Of a stretch of DNA of 26,656 bases, positions 1,611 through 10,652 are shown piece after piece. Position 1 is the first letter of the stretch; every line of letters begins with the position of its first letter. Made by a program: the position numbers and the translations under genes. This DNA comes from Chthonomonadales bacterium. Its GTDB lineage: Bacteria > Armatimonadota > Chthonomonadetes > Chthonomonadales > Chthonomonadaceae. Where the stretch lies: the NCBI GenBank assembly GCA_038217285.1, contig JBBQPO010000051.1, positions 1 to 26,656 of the forward strand, in the 5' to 3' direction. The notes beneath the pieces were generated by a model, which saw only the letters and a list, made by a program, of their open reading frames with translations, was not told the origin of the DNA and did no database searches.

Positions 1611-3181
1611 CTAGCAGTCTGTCGGAGAGACTCGTCAGATATTCTCTCCACCCCTGAAAAGCCTGTGTTTGTTCAGGCTGGTCGGCTGATCCATTCCTCG
1701 GAGTTTCCGCAAAACGTCGCGAAACGTCCGAAAGGATCGAAAAAAACCCTCTTGCGGACCTATCCCGACCACTTTAAGCGTTCGACAAGACGTGCAAGCG
1801 CCGCAGGTTGTACGCCAAGCACACCAGAAACCATTCGCCCGCCGCAGACGCCAGACCCCGTAAGGAGAATTGCCGGAAACCCAACACCTCCTTGATCTGA
1901 CCGAACATGGGCTCAATCGTGCATTTACGACGCCGATAGATCGCCTTGCCAAGCGCGGTGCGCAACTTGTAAGCCATCTTCTCCCGCGGCGTCGCTCCTT
2001 CCGGAGGAGCGGGACCTGCCTCTGCAAAGTAGGCTTCCCAGCCTCCGGAGTGATCCGCCCGTCCGGTGGCAATGTAGGCTTCAATGGCGCGTGCTTCCAA
2101 GGTGGAGAGAGTGGCGGAACCGAAGAAGCCGCAGTCCAGAGCCGCCGCCTTCGGAGAACCGAGTTCTTCGGGAATGCTGTCGAGAGTGGGAGCGGCCTCC
2201 TGTTGGTCGTTGGCATGGTTGGAAAGGGAGGCACCCACGATGAAAAGCGCCTCTTGATCCACAGCAGCCTGGACATTGTAGTGTTGGTCGAAACCGTCGT
2301 CACGACTGTTTTTCATGATCCGGCTCTGGGGATCGGTGAAGTTGTACTGATCTTTGTCGCGTGGTCCTGGCGTAGGAGGAGCAGGCAGTTTCTTGCCGGT
2401 GTGCTTCTCCTGGTCGTCACGGGAACGCATCTTGGCTTCGTACTCGGCTTGTTCGAGGATCGTACGCTCAGCGGCGCGGGCTTCCAACACCGTTCTCGCC
2501 TCGGCCATACGTGCCAGACGGTCTTTGCGCCGGGTGATCTCCTTGGGCAGATCCATGCCTTCGGGCAAGGCACTCTTATCGGCTTGCTCGGCGAGGAGGA
2601 AGAGTTGTCGGACTTCCTCTGCCAACTTGGCTTCGATCTCTTTTAGGCGTTTGTAGGAGACGGCCTTGCTCTTGGAGGCATCGGCATGGATCTTGCTTCC
2701 ATCGAGGCTGATGTTACCGACCTTGAGTAAGCCCATCTCCTGAGCCAGGAGAAGGATCTGGACAAAGATGTTCTGGAGTTGGGGAAGGAAGGTCTTGCGG
2801 AAGTTGGCGATGGTGTCGTGATCGGGAGTGAGATTGCCTGCCAGGAAGCGGTAGGGAACGTTGTCTTTGCAGGCTTGCTCGATCTTTCTGGAGGAGAAAA
2901 CGCCGTTGGCATAGGCGTAGACCAGGAGCGCGAGAAGGACTTCGGGAGCATAGGGAGCTGCTCCTCGCTTTGCATAGTGCGCATAGAAAGCCGCGAGGTC
3001 CAGATCCTCGACGACATCGGCGATGAAACGGGCGAGATGATCTTGGGGAAGACAATCGCCCAATCGGACGGTCGTTTCGAGAGCCTCTTGATAGTTAACG
3101 GTGATGAATTGTCTGCTCATGCTCATAAGTGTGGCATATTCAAGGACGGGGAGAGATGCCGTCTCTCCGACAAACTGCTAG
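1611..3181 (-). mobile_element. IS1182-family insertion sequence including CTAG flanks
   Basis: Terminal inverted repeats CTAGCAGTCTGTCGGAGAGAC (1611-1631) and GTCTCTCCGACAAACTGCTAG (3161-3181), 20/21 match. CTAG at both ends is a likely target duplication. Encloses a transposase. Confidence 0.9.
1774..3126 (-). CDS. IS1182-family DDE transposase
   Basis: 450 aa. LPQDHLARFI, YAYANGVFSSRKIE, PDHDTIANFR, DGSKIHADAS, NFTDPQSRIM, YNVQ, YRRRKCTIEPMFGQIK..LGFRQFSLRG motifs. Confidence 0.93.
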   Translation of the reverse strand: MSMSRQFITVNYQEALETTVRLGDCLPQDHLARFIADVVEDLDLAAFYAHYAKRGAAPYAPEVLLALLVYAYANGVFSSRKIEQACKDNVPYRFLAGNLTPDHDTIANFRKTFLPQLQNIFVQILLLAQEMGLLKVGNISLDGSKIHADASKSKAVSYKRLKEIEAKLAEEVRQLFLLAEQADKSALPEGMDLPKEITRRKDRLARMAEARTVLEARAAERTILEQAEYEAKMRSRDDQEKHTGKKLPAPPTPGPRDKDQYNFTDPQSRIMKNSRDDGFDQHYNVQAAVDQEALFIVGASLSNHANDQQEAAPTLDSIPEELGSPKAAALDCGFFGSATLSTLEARAIEAYIATGRADHSGGWEAYFAEAGPAPPEGATPREKMAYKLRTALGKAIYRRRKCTIEPMFGQIKEVLGFRQFSLRGLASAAGEWFLVCLAYNLRRLHVLSNA

Positions 3182-6421: not shown

Positions 6422-7117
6422 CTAACTCAGGCGGCAGATGGGGCAGATTCGGTAAGGCGTTTTGTGGAGGGAGTCGCAGCGAGGACAGACCTTCCAGTGG
6501 TGTTCCAGACGCCAGTGACGCAGGCGGGCTTCGAGGGTAATGCGGCGGGCGATACTCTCCCGAGCGTGTTCGTCCGTGATCGAAAAGAGAGCTTCCAGGC
6601 TGGCGCGAAGACGCTCTCGCTCGTGAGGTTCCAGAACCAGCGCGGCGAGCTCTTCATCGGTCGGGTTGTCCGGGTCGGCAGGCGGTTCCGGCGGCGCAAT
6701 GCCCTGCGCCCGGAAGATGATCTCGGTGATGACCTGCGCGCCGAGCAGGCGATTGAGGCCCAGCAGCAGGCGCGCCTTGTGCAGCATCAGCTCGTGGGAC
6801 CAGACGGAGCTTTTGGTGCGCACGAACAGCACGCCGTCGCGCACCGACTCGGCCTGCGTCGCGGCAGCGGCCTGCGCACCTACCACACGCGGCCAGTAGG
6901 CCAGCGCCAGGCTCTCCCGAATCTGGGTGGCGCTGTCCATGCGGTTGATGGCGTTCGCGAGCGCCGCCGCGATGGGACTGTTGCGCAGGGCGGGCGGCGT
7001 GGACTCACTCCGCGCTTCCGACGACGCTTTCCGGCTCTGCCAGGTCGGCCGCTTCTCCGAGCTTCGGTTCCGATCGGGGGAGGGTGGATTTTGAGGATCG
7101 GGGTCTTCGACTGACAT
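6422..7117 (-). CDS. dciA: DUF721/DciA family protein with C-terminal Zn ribbon (start uncertain)
   Basis: WPRVVG...A.....VRDGVLFV.T.SSVWSHEL...K..LL..LN is the DUF721 pattern; CPRC...CPIC at the C-terminus; typical position after recF. Confidence 0.8.
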   Translation of the reverse strand: MSVEDPDPQNPPSPDRNRSSEKRPTWQSRKASSEARSESTPPALRNSPIAAALANAINRMDSATQIRESLALAYWPRVVGAQAAAATQAESVRDGVLFVRTKSSVWSHELMLHKARLLLGLNRLLGAQVITEIIFRAQGIAPPEPPADPDNPTDEELAALVLEPHERERLRASLEALFSITDEHARESIARRITLEARLRHWRLEHHWKVCPRCDSLHKTPYRICPICRLS

Positions 7118-8366
7118 CAGGTGTTACCGTTCCGGCAAGGACCCGAAAGGTCGTCGCCTCGTCCAGGATCTCCTTCGGGAAGGAGCGTAAATTGGTGCAG
7201 GTCAGAAAGGTCTGGCCGCGACGGCGCACCCAGCTCAGAAGGTGCTTACGGCGGGCATCGTCCAGATCGCTCATCACATCGTCGAGCAGCATCACCGGCG
7301 GCTCCCCCACATAGTCCTCGATAAGCTGAAACTCGGCCAGTTTCAACGCCAGAACGACCGTTCGCTGCTGCCCCTGCGAGCCGTAGATACGGGCATCGGC
7401 GCCGTTGATGAGAAAAATCAGGTCGTCACGCTGCGGACCAAGCAGTGTCGTGCCTCTACGGGCCTCATCCAGACCTACCCCCCCTAAGGCCCGGCGAAAA
7501 GCATTTGCAATCGCCTCCGTGGCGCTGAGGGGCGATTCCGGACGAGTCTGCGGCAGAGTCGGTGTCTCGGACTCCGCGCTGGCCTGCGCTTCCGCCAGAT
7601 ATTGGTCTTCCGCCGAAGATTCCCGCAGCCTATCGGGCTCTCCGCACCGGGGCAGCGCAATGCTCGGCAGATAGCGCACTTCCAGACCCTCTTTGCCATC
7701 GGTCAATTCGCGATGAATCTGATCGGCCAACGGCGCCAGTCGCTCGATGTAGAAACGGCGCTTTTCGAACAGGGGCGCGCCGAACTGGATCAACTGCTGG
7801 TTCCAGACGTCCAGGCCGACCTCGTCCGGAGGCCGCGGCCGCTCCCGCAGCTCCCGCAGGAGACGATTCCGCTGCTCCAGCACCCGCTTGTAGTGGCCCA
7901 GGTCGTAGACGTATCGCGGGCTGATCTGAGAGATCTCCACGTTCAGATAGTGCCGCCGCGTGGAAGGCTCGCCCGTCACGATCGGCATGTCTAGGGAGCC
8001 GAAGAACACCGCATTGAACTGTCCCAGAATATCGACGACGCGGCTGCGTTTCAGGCCGTTGACCCTAACCGCCTTTTTGTCGCTCTGAAAGACCGATACC
8101 TGAATCTCGGCATCGCCCTCCCGCTCTCGCGAAACCTCCGCCGTCACATGGGCCATCTCCGATTCGCGAAAAATCATCTCCGATTCGCGACCGGCCCGGA
8201 AGGAGCGCGTGGTCGCCAGCAGGGAGAGGGCTTCCAGCACATTGCTCTTGCCCTGGGCGTTCGGCCCATGCAGAATATTCAGACCCTCTCCCGGCGTCAG
8301 ATCCAGCGTGGTGTAGTTCCGAAATCCACTCAGTTTCAGTTGGCAGACACGCATGACGCTTACCAC
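7005..8366 (-). CDS. recF: DNA replication/repair protein RecF (start 8366 GTG or 8354 ATG)
   Basis: FRNY, Walker A GPNAQGKSN, SFR, GPQRDD, signature GSQGQQR, Walker B LLDDVMSDLD. Confidence 0.97.
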   Translation of the reverse strand: MVSVMRVCQLKLSGFRNYTTLDLTPGEGLNILHGPNAQGKSNVLEALSLLATTRSFRAGRESEMIFRESEMAHVTAEVSREREGDAEIQVSVFQSDKKAVRVNGLKRSRVVDILGQFNAVFFGSLDMPIVTGEPSTRRHYLNVEISQISPRYVYDLGHYKRVLEQRNRLLRELRERPRPPDEVGLDVWNQQLIQFGAPLFEKRRFYIERLAPLADQIHRELTDGKEGLEVRYLPSIALPRCGEPDRLRESSAEDQYLAEAQASAESETPTLPQTRPESPLSATEAIANAFRRALGGVGLDEARRGTTLLGPQRDDLIFLINGADARIYGSQGQQRTVVLALKLAEFQLIEDYVGEPPVMLLDDVMSDLDDARRKHLLSWVRRRGQTFLTCTNLRSFPKEILDEATTFRVLAGTVTPDVSRRPRSSKSTLPRSEPKLGEAADLAEPESVVGSAE

Positions 8367-8414
8367 GCTCCGTTTCTCGTCGCACTCGGTTCTTCCAGGC
8401 TGTCAAAACAGAGA

Positions 8415-9075
8415 AGTTATTAACAAGTTATCAACAATACCAACAGAACGAACAGGCGATTCGAGATCTCTTCCGAGTACCACTTGGATTCTACGTTCGA
8501 TCCCGTTTCCCGGTTCAAATCGATTCTTCCCTCGCCCGCATCTCTTCCGTTCCCCATTCGGAATCCAGGGAACTATTCCAGAATTTCAAGAGTCATTTCC
8601 CAGAGCCCCTATGAATCAAGAATCAGTTATCTATGATCTATATAAGAGTCTGTGCTTATGATTAAGCGGTGAATAAGACTCATAACTAGGGGGATAGTAG
8701 ACGGGCGAATCGTATTTTTCAAACGATAGAATCAAATCGTTCTGCGACTCTGATAGATTCTGCTAGTTACCGATAACGCAATTGAGTCTACATCCGTCTC
8801 AACTACTAGGGGGATAGTTATTAACAATGGGCCGTCTTCGCTGTTAATAACTCGACTCATAACTGCCCACTTACTAACAGAGAACTGTTGACAGATTCGT
8901 TGACAGGCAGTTATGAGTCCCGCTGTTAATAACTTCGCCCCGACTCGGTTGAAACTGTTAATAACTATCCCCCTAGTAGCAATCCGCCCTTCGGGAAGTG
9001 CATGTTTAAAGCGTTAAACATGCACTTGTTCGCCCTTCGAATCGCCTTCCCTACTCCGCCTCTCTGTTAATAACT
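8415..9075. repeat. Non-canonical DnaA-box-like repeat AGTTATTAACA, 6 exact copies
   Basis: TTATTAACA core at 8417(+), 8818(+), 8842(-), 8924(-), 8956(-), 9065(-). One-mismatch variants TTATCAACA 8428 and TTACTAACA 8871. Confidence 0.85.
8996..9027. repeat. Perfect 14-bp hairpin downstream of dnaA (terminator or protein-binding palindrome)
   Basis: AAGTGCATGTTTAA-agcg-TTAAACATGCACTT. Confidence 0.7.
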
Positions 9076-9110
9076 TCCTCCTGGCACTGTATAACTTTGC
9101 GACTCAGAGT

Positions 9111-10652
9111 TTAACCCATCAGACTCTTAATCAACTGATTCACCAGAGCTTTCAGGCCGGGATCGGCCTGGAGCAGGGTGCGGATTCGCTGGCAGGCGTA
9201 GACGATGGTGGCATGGTCTCGTCCGCCGAATGCCGCTCCCGTGATGGAGGTGTTGAGCTCCGGCATAAGCTCACGACAGAGGTGCATGGCGACATGGCGC
9301 GCCAGAGCGATATCCTTATGGCGGCCCGGCCCCTTGATCTGCACGGAGGTCGTCTGAAACTGCTCCGCGACGGCGTCCACGATCTCATCGATGGTAACCT
9401 TTCGCACCCGGATCGGCTTGCCTATGAAGTACTCGCTCAGCACACCCTGCGCGACCTCCTGCGTGGGCGACTGGTTCATGATTGAACAGGAGGCAATCAG
9501 GCGCGTCAGAGCGCCTTCCAGCGTCCTCATATTGGACTGGATGGCATCGGCGATATAGAGCAGTACATCGTCAGGGACATCCACCCCTTCCCGTTCGCGG
9601 CATTTCTGAAGGAACGCGATGCGGGTTTCCAACTCCGGCGGACTGATATCGGCGATCAGGCCGCTCTGGAAGCGGGATCGAAGGCGTTCGTCCATTGTAT
9701 TCAGTTCACGCGGACTGCGGTCGCTGGCGAGCACGATCTGCTTCCCCGTCTGATAGAGCGCGCTGAAGGTGTGGAAGAACTCCTCTTTGGTCTGCTCTTT
9801 ACCGGCGATGAACTGAATATCGTCTACCAGCCAGACATCCACCGCGCGATGCTGACGGCGGAACTCTTCGATGACTTTCGCCCCGAGCGACGAGACATAG
9901 TGCTGCGTGAAATACTCGCCGGAGACGTAGGCGATTCGCATCTTGGGATGTCGGCGGCGGATGTCGTGGGCAATCGACTGCAGCAGATGTGTTTTCCCGA
10001 GGCCAGGGCCGCCGTAGAGAAACAGCGGATTGTAGACGTCGCCGGGCCGCTCGGCGACGGCGCTCGCGCTTGCGAAGGCAAGACGATTCGAGCGTCCGCC
10101 GCCTAAAAAGTTCTCGAAGAGGAAGCGGCCGTTCAGCGGCATGCAGGGGATTTCGGGCAGGTCGGCGCCGCGTCTGCCTTCGGTCTTGCGAGAGTTGGAT
10201 TTCGGGGTGGGGCGCGGCTGCACCGAAGGCGTCTGCAGGGGCGTTTCGGCGCGGGCCGCCACATGGGGAGGGTCTGCCTCCTCATCGGCTTCGGTATCGA
10301 GGGGCAGGGCCGTCTGAACCGAAGCGGTCGCCGACGCCTTGCGCGAACTCTCCGCCTGCTGTTCACGGGAGGAGACGACCAACTGGACCTGGAGGCCGGT
10401 GGTATCGAGGTGGAACTCCAGCGCACTGCGAATAGCGTTCAGGTGATTGTGTTCCAGGCGGTCCCGAGCGAACGCACTGCTGACTCCGAGGGTGACGACA
10501 TTGCCTTCGTAGGTCAGTGGCTGTATCGGCACGATGAAGCCCTGGAACATGGACGTGCTGACTTTGGAGGCAAGAAGATGCAGCGACAGCTTCCACGCGA
10601 TTCGGAGCGTGGCCGAGCGGTCTTCCTCTCCGAATTCGAGCTGTCCGCTCAC
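9111..10652 (-). CDS. dnaA: Chromosomal replication initiator DnaA
   Basis: YNPLFLYGGPGLGKTHL, DDIQFIAGK, EEFFHTF, SDR, RLRSRF, SNMRTLEGAL, FGGRDH; all four domains present. Confidence 0.97.
   Translation of the reverse strand: MSGQLEFGEEDRSATLRIAWKLSLHLLASKVSTSMFQGFIVPIQPLTYEGNVVTLGVSSAFARDRLEHNHLNAIRSALEFHLDTTGLQVQLVVSSREQQAESSRKASATASVQTALPLDTEADEEADPPHVAARAETPLQTPSVQPRPTPKSNSRKTEGRRGADLPEIPCMPLNGRFLFENFLGGGRSNRLAFASASAVAERPGDVYNPLFLYGGPGLGKTHLLQSIAHDIRRRHPKMRIAYVSGEYFTQHYVSSLGAKVIEEFRRQHRAVDVWLVDDIQFIAGKEQTKEEFFHTFSALYQTGKQIVLASDRSPRELNTMDERLRSRFQSGLIADISPPELETRIAFLQKCREREGVDVPDDVLLYIADAIQSNMRTLEGALTRLIASCSIMNQSPTQEVAQGVLSEYFIGKPIRVRKVTIDEIVDAVAEQFQTTSVQIKGPGRHKDIALARHVAMHLCRELMPELNTSITGAAFGGRDHATIVYACQRIRTLLQADPGLKALVNQLIKSLMG

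Follow-up and report, generated by a model that had tools for sequence, protein, structure and literature searches.

The spacer between dnaA and recF in a draft genome of the Chthonomonadales (Armatimonadota; GCA_038217285.1) very probably contains the chromosomal origin of replication, oriC, with repeated copies of the 11-mer AGTTATTAACA as its putative lineage-specific DnaA boxes. These boxes carry A where the classical consensus has C, and the change is matched by an altered residue in the recognition helix of DnaA. The window analyzed was the entire 26,656-nucleotide (nt) contig JBBQPO010000051.1 (C51), and genome-wide counts refer to the draft of 6,210,036 bases on 459 contigs (60.4% G+C, 95% complete).

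A genome-unique cluster of putative DnaA boxes

The dnaA-recF spacer (8367-9110) is 744 bp long, or 756 bp if the ATG start of recF is used, and its G+C content is 45% compared to 60% for the genome. An earlier note on this DNA had described six exact copies of AGTTATTAACA in both orientations, and all six were recovered (two on the plus strand, four on the minus strand). Six is also the exact count for the window, in which 0.01 copies were expected and 100 dinucleotide shuffles yielded at most one copy and none reached six. The two variants that had been placed near 8426 and 8871 are present as AGTTATCAACA (8426-8436, plus strand) and TTACTAACA (8871-8879, plus strand). Together, the exact copies and variants span 661 bp directly 3' of dnaA, with four on each strand, and the sites of the spacer that bear on box recognition are as follows, with the number of invariant alignment columns given for each box.

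9065-9075, minus strand: box 1, AGTTATTAACA, about 36 nt past the dnaA stop; 11/11 columns invariant in five congeners, flanks unalignable
8956-8966, minus strand: box 2, AGTTATTAACA; 10/11 columns invariant, with TTATCAACA at this place in genome G004
8956-8979, plus strand: 24-nt module TGTTAATAACTATCCCCCTAGTAG, including box 2, with an inverted copy at 8803-8826 that includes box 5
8924-8934, minus strand: box 3, AGTTATTAACA; 11/11 columns invariant
8842-8852, minus strand: box 4, AGTTATTAACA; 10/11 columns invariant
8816-8826, plus strand: box 5, AGTTATTAACA; 11/11 columns invariant
8415-8425, plus strand: box 6, AGTTATTAACA; 10/11 columns invariant
8426-8436, plus strand: variant box AGTTATCAACA, in tandem with box 6, which starts 11 nt before it, and about 70 nt upstream of the recF start; 8/11 columns invariant
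8869-8879, plus strand: variant box ACTTACTAACA, containing the only TTACTAACA of the genome; 8/11 columns invariant
8668-8676, minus strand: TTATTCACC, a site with C at position 6 (C6), directly after the AGTTATGAGTC copy at 8677-8687 (minus strand) and bordering the least stable stretch of the spacer; kept in 5/5 congeners

All six copies of the 9-mer TTATTAACA in the genome fall within this spacer. The relaxed pattern TTWTNAACA occurs 133 times genome-wide, and groups of at least three within 600 bp are found in the dnaA-recF spacer only; TTWTNCACA occurs 137 times and forms no such group anywhere in the draft. The canonical TTATCCACA is present in ten copies genome-wide, with one copy apiece on the six contigs listed. 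The spacer is the sole place in the genome with at least three boxes in both orientations in an intergenic position beside dnaA. TTATTAACA agrees with TTATCCACA at 7/9 positions and with the relaxed consensus TT(A/T)TNCACA at 8/9, the consensus C at position 6 being replaced by A (A6), and A occupies this position in seven of the eight spacer boxes that match TTWTN[A/C]ACN. Because it falls outside the stringent DnaA-box consensus, TTATTAACA is a variant box and not a canonical one.

The earlier note had found no TTATCCACA in the spacer, which was confirmed, but a canonical-type site is present in the C6 word TTATTCACC at 8668-8676. As the earlier note had also anticipated, tools built on the Escherichia coli box would score the spacer poorly: a one-mismatch search with TTATCCACA yields one site only, TTATCAACA. 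The 5' AG that was taken to be an invariant part of the motif is real, but it is not special to the A6 box. In the phylum as a whole, 103 of 129 A6 boxes are preceded by A at -2 and 116 by G at -1, as are 70 and 83 of 104 C6 boxes, respectively, and the 15 canonical TTATCCACA boxes of genome G064 are flanked by AG (11 boxes) or GG (4 boxes); the flank is phylum-wide and independent of position 6.

Conservation within the genus and graded words in relatives

Four congeners (DnaA 81-91% identical) carry the AGTTATTAACA word at matching places, and all 21 of the exact 11-mers found across these four genomes lie beside dnaA. In a 5-way alignment, 79 of the 88 columns in the eight boxes are invariant (90%), compared to 255 of 703 columns in the rest of the spacer (36%), and the boxes stand in the five genomes as conserved islands in diverged flanks. 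The changes within boxes occur mostly at position 5 (T or C), which is the N of the classical consensus.

The homologous spacer of other genera holds clusters of related words that differ by one or two substitutions and run from the canonical TTATCCACA via TTATCAACA to TTTTCAACA. The words found, with the genomes (G) or loci (L) that carry them, were:

AGTTTTCAACA: G013, G015, G019, G023 and others
TTATCAACA: G011, G164 and one Chthonomonas calidirosea metagenome-assembled genome (MAG) at locus L074, whose DnaA likewise has an RDHAT helix
TTATTCACC: G022 and G024, where it is the main box
TTATCCACC: G017
TTATCCACA (canonical): G005 and L035
TTATGCACA: sister family

The dnaA spacer accounts for 8/8 copies of AGTTTTCAACA in G019, 7/8 in G013, 3/3 in G023 and 5/11 in G015. 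Measured past the dnaA stop, the boxes of G013 lie at 37, 146, 179, 261 and 285 nt and those of the present genome at 35, 144, 176, 258 and 288 nt, and every word differs between the two. Such near-equal offsets with all words different are best explained by one trans-acting reader with a shifted preference.

In Capsulimonadaceae and related families (Capsulimonadaceae and "Armatimonadales" MAGs; L040-L069 and L140), T(T)GAGTCACA or TTGTGTCACA occurs in 7-16 copies in the first ~700 nt after dnaA, the corresponding DnaA helix reads K-S-H-T-A (Ser at E. coli position 433, Ala at 436), and the box holds an internal GAGTC, which is a GANTC site. Genus G018 (L009; helix RDHTTIVYA) has nine copies of AGTTTTCCCCCAAG located 180-515 nt after dnaA that give no clean alignment to the 9-mer consensus. 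Five TTATCAACA-like sites follow dnaA in L056, an Acidaminococcales MAG (Bacillota) whose helix reads R-N-Y-S-T (Asn433, Tyr434), and A6 boxes with Asn433 may therefore occur outside Armatimonadota too.

The DnaA recognition helix and box position 6

The DnaA of this genome carries the recognition helix RDHATIVYA at residues 478-486, in domain IV, and its helix-turn-helix aligned without gaps to those of E. coli (1j1v) and Mycobacterium tuberculosis (3pvp). Base-specific contacts in E. coli DnaA are made by R399, P423, D433, H434, T435 and H439 according to secondary sources (PMC2533591, PMC7561715), and the equivalent residues are:

E. coli R399: Arg (in GPGRHKD)
E. coli P423: Thr
E. coli D433: Asp479
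E. coli H434: His480
E. coli T435: Ala481 (codon 9210-9212)
E. coli H439: Tyr485

Helix 434-451 of the E. coli protein is described as reading TnCACA in the major groove and Arg399 as reading TTA in the minor groove, and the T435M substitution is reported to be binding-defective (PMC5742627). The unchanged TTAT of the variant box thus faces a conserved contact, and the changed part of the box faces the changed helix.

The association between helix and box was examined at two levels, with residues given in E. coli numbering. Among 37 DnaA loci of the order, 22 had at least three matches to TTWTN[A/C]ACN within 800 nt downstream of dnaA; 13 of these clusters combined Ala435 with A6, nine combined Thr435 or Ser435 with C6, and none was discordant. 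The sample was then extended across the phylum to 31 further families, each represented by one or two loci from genomes picked among the 149 with a DnaA match. After duplicates and one further locus with a truncated DnaA were removed, 101 loci were available, of which 34 had at least three boxes near dnaA. Ala435 went with A6 in 15/15 of the clustered loci (14 Asp-His-Ala, one Asn-His-Ala), and C6 was found in 16/16 loci with Asp433 and Thr435 or Ser435, including one Asp-Tyr-Thr locus. The three loci with A6 boxes but without Ala435 all have Asn433; two belong to family f16 (7 and 10 boxes) and one is the Acidaminococcales MAG (5 boxes). The prior rule, Ala435, fits 31/34 loci, and "Ala435 or Asn433", its second half added post hoc, fits 34/34. 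The remaining 67 loci had no such cluster; six of them have Ala435, and another 20 have Ser-His-Thr and boxes that escape the pattern. Tyr485 (E. coli His439) was considered as the determinant of A6 and rejected, because M. tuberculosis has Tyr with C6 boxes and families f16 and f20 have His with A6 boxes.

Taken together, the genome-unique cluster, the conservation among congeners, the graded words in relatives and Ala481 of DnaA support the lineage-specific initiator box that the earlier note had proposed.

Evaluation of the origin interpretation

If the spacer is oriC, the six copies of AGTTATTAACA, with the variants that differ from it by one or two bases, would be the DnaA boxes of the Chthonomonadaceae chromosomal origin, bound by domain IV of DnaA in the way that TTATCCACA is bound elsewhere. 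From the minor groove, the kept Arg399-equivalent would recognize the 5' TTA, which is unchanged, and from the major groove the recognition helix would recognize the 3' part, where the box has A in place of C at position 6 and the helix has Ala481 in place of Thr435. The smaller side chain of Ala481 may drop a contact that demands C:G, or may accommodate the thymine methyl of an A:T pair; with an altered side chain and a relaxed demand at position 6, the protein and its sites would have changed together. Unwinding may begin in the A+T-rich stretch near 8609-8648. The known role of residue 435 suggests that its change may be the cause of the altered box preference.

A number of observations weigh against this interpretation. 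The canonical-type C6 word TTATTCACC persists in the spacer at 8668-8676 (minus strand). With respect to the helix, the Asn433 half of the rule is post hoc, and the clusters of family f20 and the Acidaminococcales MAG are small (3 and 5 sites, respectively); Ala435 is present in 20/101 loci, six of which have no box cluster next to dnaA. Independent events are few, with at least six changes per trait on the best tree (domain III alone), and contrasts on well-supported branches number only two (one in the family-only set), so that no significance can be claimed for the helix-box association. This DnaA is further set apart by Tyr439 and by its lack of Pro423, so Ala481 may not be the only change or the causal one; however, M. 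tuberculosis combines Tyr439 with C6 boxes, and Thr423 is family-wide, which argues against a role for either residue. No convincing DnaA-trio array is present in the spacer, where the TAGTAG that follows two of the boxes amounts to two repeats only, is located 5' of the box and has not been kept in G001 or G004. Lastly, the draft is 95% complete, and a second cluster could sit in the missing part.

GC skew was likewise of no help. The cumulative skew of the window has only a local dip near 9000-9500. In the closed 6.15-Mb genome of G019, twenty 20-kb samples had skews within about ±0.03, with two outliers and no two-arm pattern. A 400-kb stretch with the dnaA spacer of G019 at its centre had skews of +0.002 to the left and -0.008 to the right, and the long open reading frames (ORFs) did not switch orientation. 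As this lineage has almost no skew, skew cannot decide the location of the origin, and it was dropped as an independent origin marker, being uninformative in either direction.

The main competing explanation is that the sites are indeed DnaA boxes but form a regulatory or titration cluster, acting in dnaA autoregulation, in control of the recF-dciA operon or as a datA-like sink, with the origin elsewhere. Both E. coli and Bacillus subtilis have box clusters away from oriC, in the form of intergenic sites of stable DnaA binding (PMC2533591), the tandem pair at 8415-8436 lies ~70 nt upstream of recF, and neither the skew nor a clear DnaA-trio array speaks for an origin here; moreover, six Ala435 relatives lack a cluster beside dnaA, so origins move in the family. 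However, an origin needs boxes, and no second cluster of either box type is present in the 95%-complete genome, a fact that weakens the regulatory explanation. The spacer is also long (744 bp), has 45% G+C in a 60% genome, includes an A+T-rich minimum and boxes in both orientations, and keeps its architecture across genera. We therefore regard a purely regulatory cluster as unlikely.

Less probable still is that the 11-mers are sites of another protein, such as a transcription factor, a nucleoid or partition protein or a CtrA-like regulator, and resemble DnaA boxes by coincidence. The conserved unit of 11 nt (AG plus nine) does exceed the classical box, and the spacer has more conserved words (AGTTATGAGTC, TTGACAG and the 8740-8800 block), so more than one factor probably binds there. 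Coincidence is nonetheless hard to reconcile with the 7/9 match to TTATCCACA, in which the mismatches fall at the free position 5 and at position 6, with the presence in relatives, at the same place, of every intermediate up to the canonical word, with the tracking of DnaA helix residues by position 6 in 34/34 loci, or with the AG flank that canonical TTATCCACA boxes of the phylum share. That the copies are chance matches or functionless remnants of mobile or tandem repeats has next to no likelihood: two box-containing 24-nt modules do form an inverted repeat (8803-8826 and 8956-8979) that local duplication could have produced, but the idea is already contradicted by rarity (6 copies seen, 0.01 expected), by the lack of copies elsewhere in the genome, by placement and conservation as islands in five genomes, and by the lack of an Rfam match.

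A cluster of GANTC sites and a CcrM homologue

The spacer presumed to be the origin is also dense in the palindrome GANTC:

8458-9043: GANTC cluster, 20 sites in the 744-bp spacer

The density is 26.9 sites per kb in the spacer and 2.94 per kb genome-wide, a difference of about nine times, and the densest GANTC window of the genome is the spacer (23 sites; the next has 14). GAWTC and GASTC both contribute, and six control patterns were not enriched. Of 21 sites in 8340-9130, 12 are kept in 5/5 congeners and four more in 4/5. The concentration of GANTC at the putative origin recurs in most dnaA spacers of Chthonomonadaceae and Capsulimonadaceae. Among 40 further loci of the phylum, no GANTC enrichment was seen with or without a CcrM homologue, except in f1 and f29; many of these 40 loci are also without a box cluster beside dnaA.

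A homologue of the GANTC methyltransferase CcrM is encoded elsewhere in the genome:

G000:C164:3004-4212 (L079:1114-2325), minus strand: CcrM homologue, 403 amino acids (aa), aligning to residues 14-362 of 366 of Caulobacter CcrM (6pbd_A; E 5.7e-133)

Its score against the NCBIfam CcrM equivalog model, 542 bits, is below the 830-bit cut-off, which counts against orthology. The gene has a peptidyl-tRNA hydrolase downstream, an extracytoplasmic function (ECF)-type sigma factor upstream and a 177-aa ORF of no family nearby, and no restriction enzyme was among the neighbors examined. The homologue was found in 38/41 genomes of the order with identity that follows kinship, and its gene is 3-4 kb away from dnaA in genus g28; at a threshold of 1e-60, 71/161 genomes of the phylum have a CcrM match.

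Origins marked by methylation include Cori of Caulobacter, with CcrM and GANTC, and oriC of E. coli, with Dam, GATC and SeqA. To our knowledge, control of an origin by CcrM-type GANTC methylation has so far been tied to Alphaproteobacteria, and our search of the literature found nothing on GANTC in Armatimonadota or Chthonomonas. As in Caulobacter and E. coli, the putative origin region here is the genome's densest cluster of a short methylatable palindrome, in this case GANTC; as in Caulobacter, a full-length CcrM homologue is encoded, but the phylum is different and the homologue scores below the equivalog cut-off. On the strength of these sequence features, we advance the hypothesis that control of this origin may be coupled to methylation.

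Other elements of the spacer and flanking genes

Further features of the spacer were:

8996-9027: inverted repeat of two perfectly matched 14-bp arms around a 4-nt loop, located between boxes 1 and 2
8909-8919 (plus strand), 8854-8864 (minus strand) and 8677-8687 (minus strand): box-like word AGTTATGAGTC, which shares AGTTAT and holds GAGTC (a GANTC site); 9-11 of 11 columns invariant in five congeners
8888-8906, plus strand: two direct TTGACAG repeats, 12 nt apart, reading CTGTCAACA/G on the minus strand, 2-3 mismatches from TTATCAACA; kept in 5/5 congeners
8609-8648: least stable 40-mer, 72.5% A+T, nearest-neighbor free energy -42.1 kcal/mol; the adjoining block 8640-8700 is conserved in the genus

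All 14 pairs of the inverted repeat are present in the consensus fold of five congeners, 6/14 with compensatory two-sided changes, and the repeat may form an RNA hairpin that ends the dnaA transcript or a cruciform within the origin. An intrinsic terminator was rejected, as the U-tract is absent and a terminator scan was empty. The TTGACAG repeats are candidate weak boxes, judging by their similarity to TTATCAACA. The least stable 40-mer, which lies beside the box-like pair at 8668-8687, is a candidate unwinding element. The three AGTTATGAGTC words, the two TTGACAG repeats, a block at ~8740-8800 and TTATTCACC are further conserved islands in the genus. A scan of the spacer with Rfam matched no family, and its sole hit was a sub-threshold chance match (21 bits vs 90).

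A DnaA-trio or basal unwinding system, defined by 3'-GAT-5' repeats that follow a G+C cluster beside a box, was raised by two copies of TGTTAATAACT-ATCCCCC-TAGTAG in an inverted pair and proved unsupported. At locus L130 (G065, family f21), a (CTA)n/(TAG)n run with CTACTAC five times follows dnaA, and TTTTCCACA-type boxes lie upstream of dnaA; unlike the spacer of the window, this run looks like a textbook DnaA-trio array.

The genes that flank the spacer were identified as follows:

9111-10652, minus strand: dnaA, 513 aa; Pfam Bac_DnaA (8.8e-63), Bac_DnaA_C (3.4e-21) and DnaA_N; NCBIfam TIGR00362, 439 bits (cut-off 344)
7005-8366, minus strand: recF; NCBIfam TIGR00611, 315 bits (cut-off 172); Pfam SMC_N
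6422-7117, minus strand: homologue of the helicase operator DciA (DUF721), downstream of recF; Pfam DciA (8.3e-16)

This dnaA is the sole DnaA match in the genome. From its conservation, the ATG at 8352-8354 is more likely to be the start of recF than the GTG at 8366. recF is followed on the same strand by the DciA homologue and a ComEC homologue. There is no dnaN between dnaA and recF, and PF00712 and PF02768 were unmatched in the 95%-complete draft, in which dnaN may simply be unassembled. An insertion sequence (IS)-type DDE transposase (DUF772 and DDE_Tnp_1) is encoded at 1774-3126 (minus strand), 5 kb from the spacer, and given this transposase, the contig may be rearranged at its left end compared to relatives. 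The DnaA match in the closed 3.4-Mb genome of G007 falls into two overlapping pieces (query 1-295 and 278-511) at G007:C1:1351910-1353438 (minus strand), which suggests a frameshift or a sequencing error in dnaA.

Implications and comparison with known systems

Read jointly, the results raise a broader possibility, to which we give somewhat less than even odds: that the DnaA code has been rewritten repeatedly in one phylum and that the origins of Chthonomonadales and Capsulimonadaceae are under CcrM-type GANTC methylation control. The rewriting would comprise Thr435 to Ala in Chthonomonadaceae and, in two other families that have Ser or Ala at 435, Asp433 to Asn, with C6 to A6 at every origin box in either case; some genera would apparently have reverted, and other families would use T(T)GAGTCACA-type boxes with an internal GANTC. 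In practical terms, origin finders and DnaA-regulon searches based on the E. coli word would miss the origin here and in many other Armatimonadota. The genome paper of Fimbriimonas gives a "jagged" skew and only two consensus boxes (PMC4072686), a count that the E. coli default may explain. Neighboring genera with C6 or A6 and with Thr/Ala435 or Asp/Asn433 constitute a natural mutagenesis series for the DnaA-DNA recognition code, one that could yield a rule for predicting box specificity from sequence, and the GANTC cluster with the conserved CcrM homologue points to possible methylation-coupled control of initiation outside Alphaproteobacteria.

The spacer resembles the classical oriC of E. 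coli and B. subtilis, with its TT(A/T)TNCACA boxes, in having asymmetric 9-mers in both orientations within a long, A+T-richer spacer beside dnaA, in the 5' TTAT, 3' ACA and 5' G flank of its boxes, and in a four-domain DnaA that keeps R399, D433 and H434. It differs in the A6 of its boxes, in the Ala, Tyr and Thr that DnaA has for Thr435, His439 and Pro423, respectively, in the presence of recF and not dnaN downstream, and in that no DnaA-trio array was recognized.

Lineage-dependent box words have been described, and accounts of Thermotoga maritima link its word to changed residues in domain IV (PMC10225481, PMC6669920). The principle, a box word that varies between lineages, is the same here. 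In those cases, however, either the C is kept at the equivalent of position 6 or the box is a wholly different 12-mer, whereas here a single core position is switched, and the switch can be traced among close genera, with intermediates and reversals, alongside residues 433 and 435.

The exact 9-mer has also been noted before: for Mycoplasma hominis, M. mobile and M. arthritidis, TTATTAACA has been put forward as a putative DnaA box (PMC2751442), and a preprint on phage T5 counts it among non-consensus "DnaA*" sites (10.1101/866236). No description of variant DnaA boxes in Armatimonadota was found in the literature searched. The mycoplasma word is identical and likewise lies beside dnaA, but it occurs there in one or two copies upstream of dnaA, in very A+T-rich genomes in which the word is not rare; in contrast, the present genome has six genome-unique copies downstream of dnaA, at 60% G+C and with comparative support. 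Given the mycoplasma proposal, the exact word is not unprecedented, and species-specific boxes were already known; the new elements are a replacement that is complete and genome-unique, in a genome rich in G+C, together with the association of DnaA residues and box words across neighboring genera.

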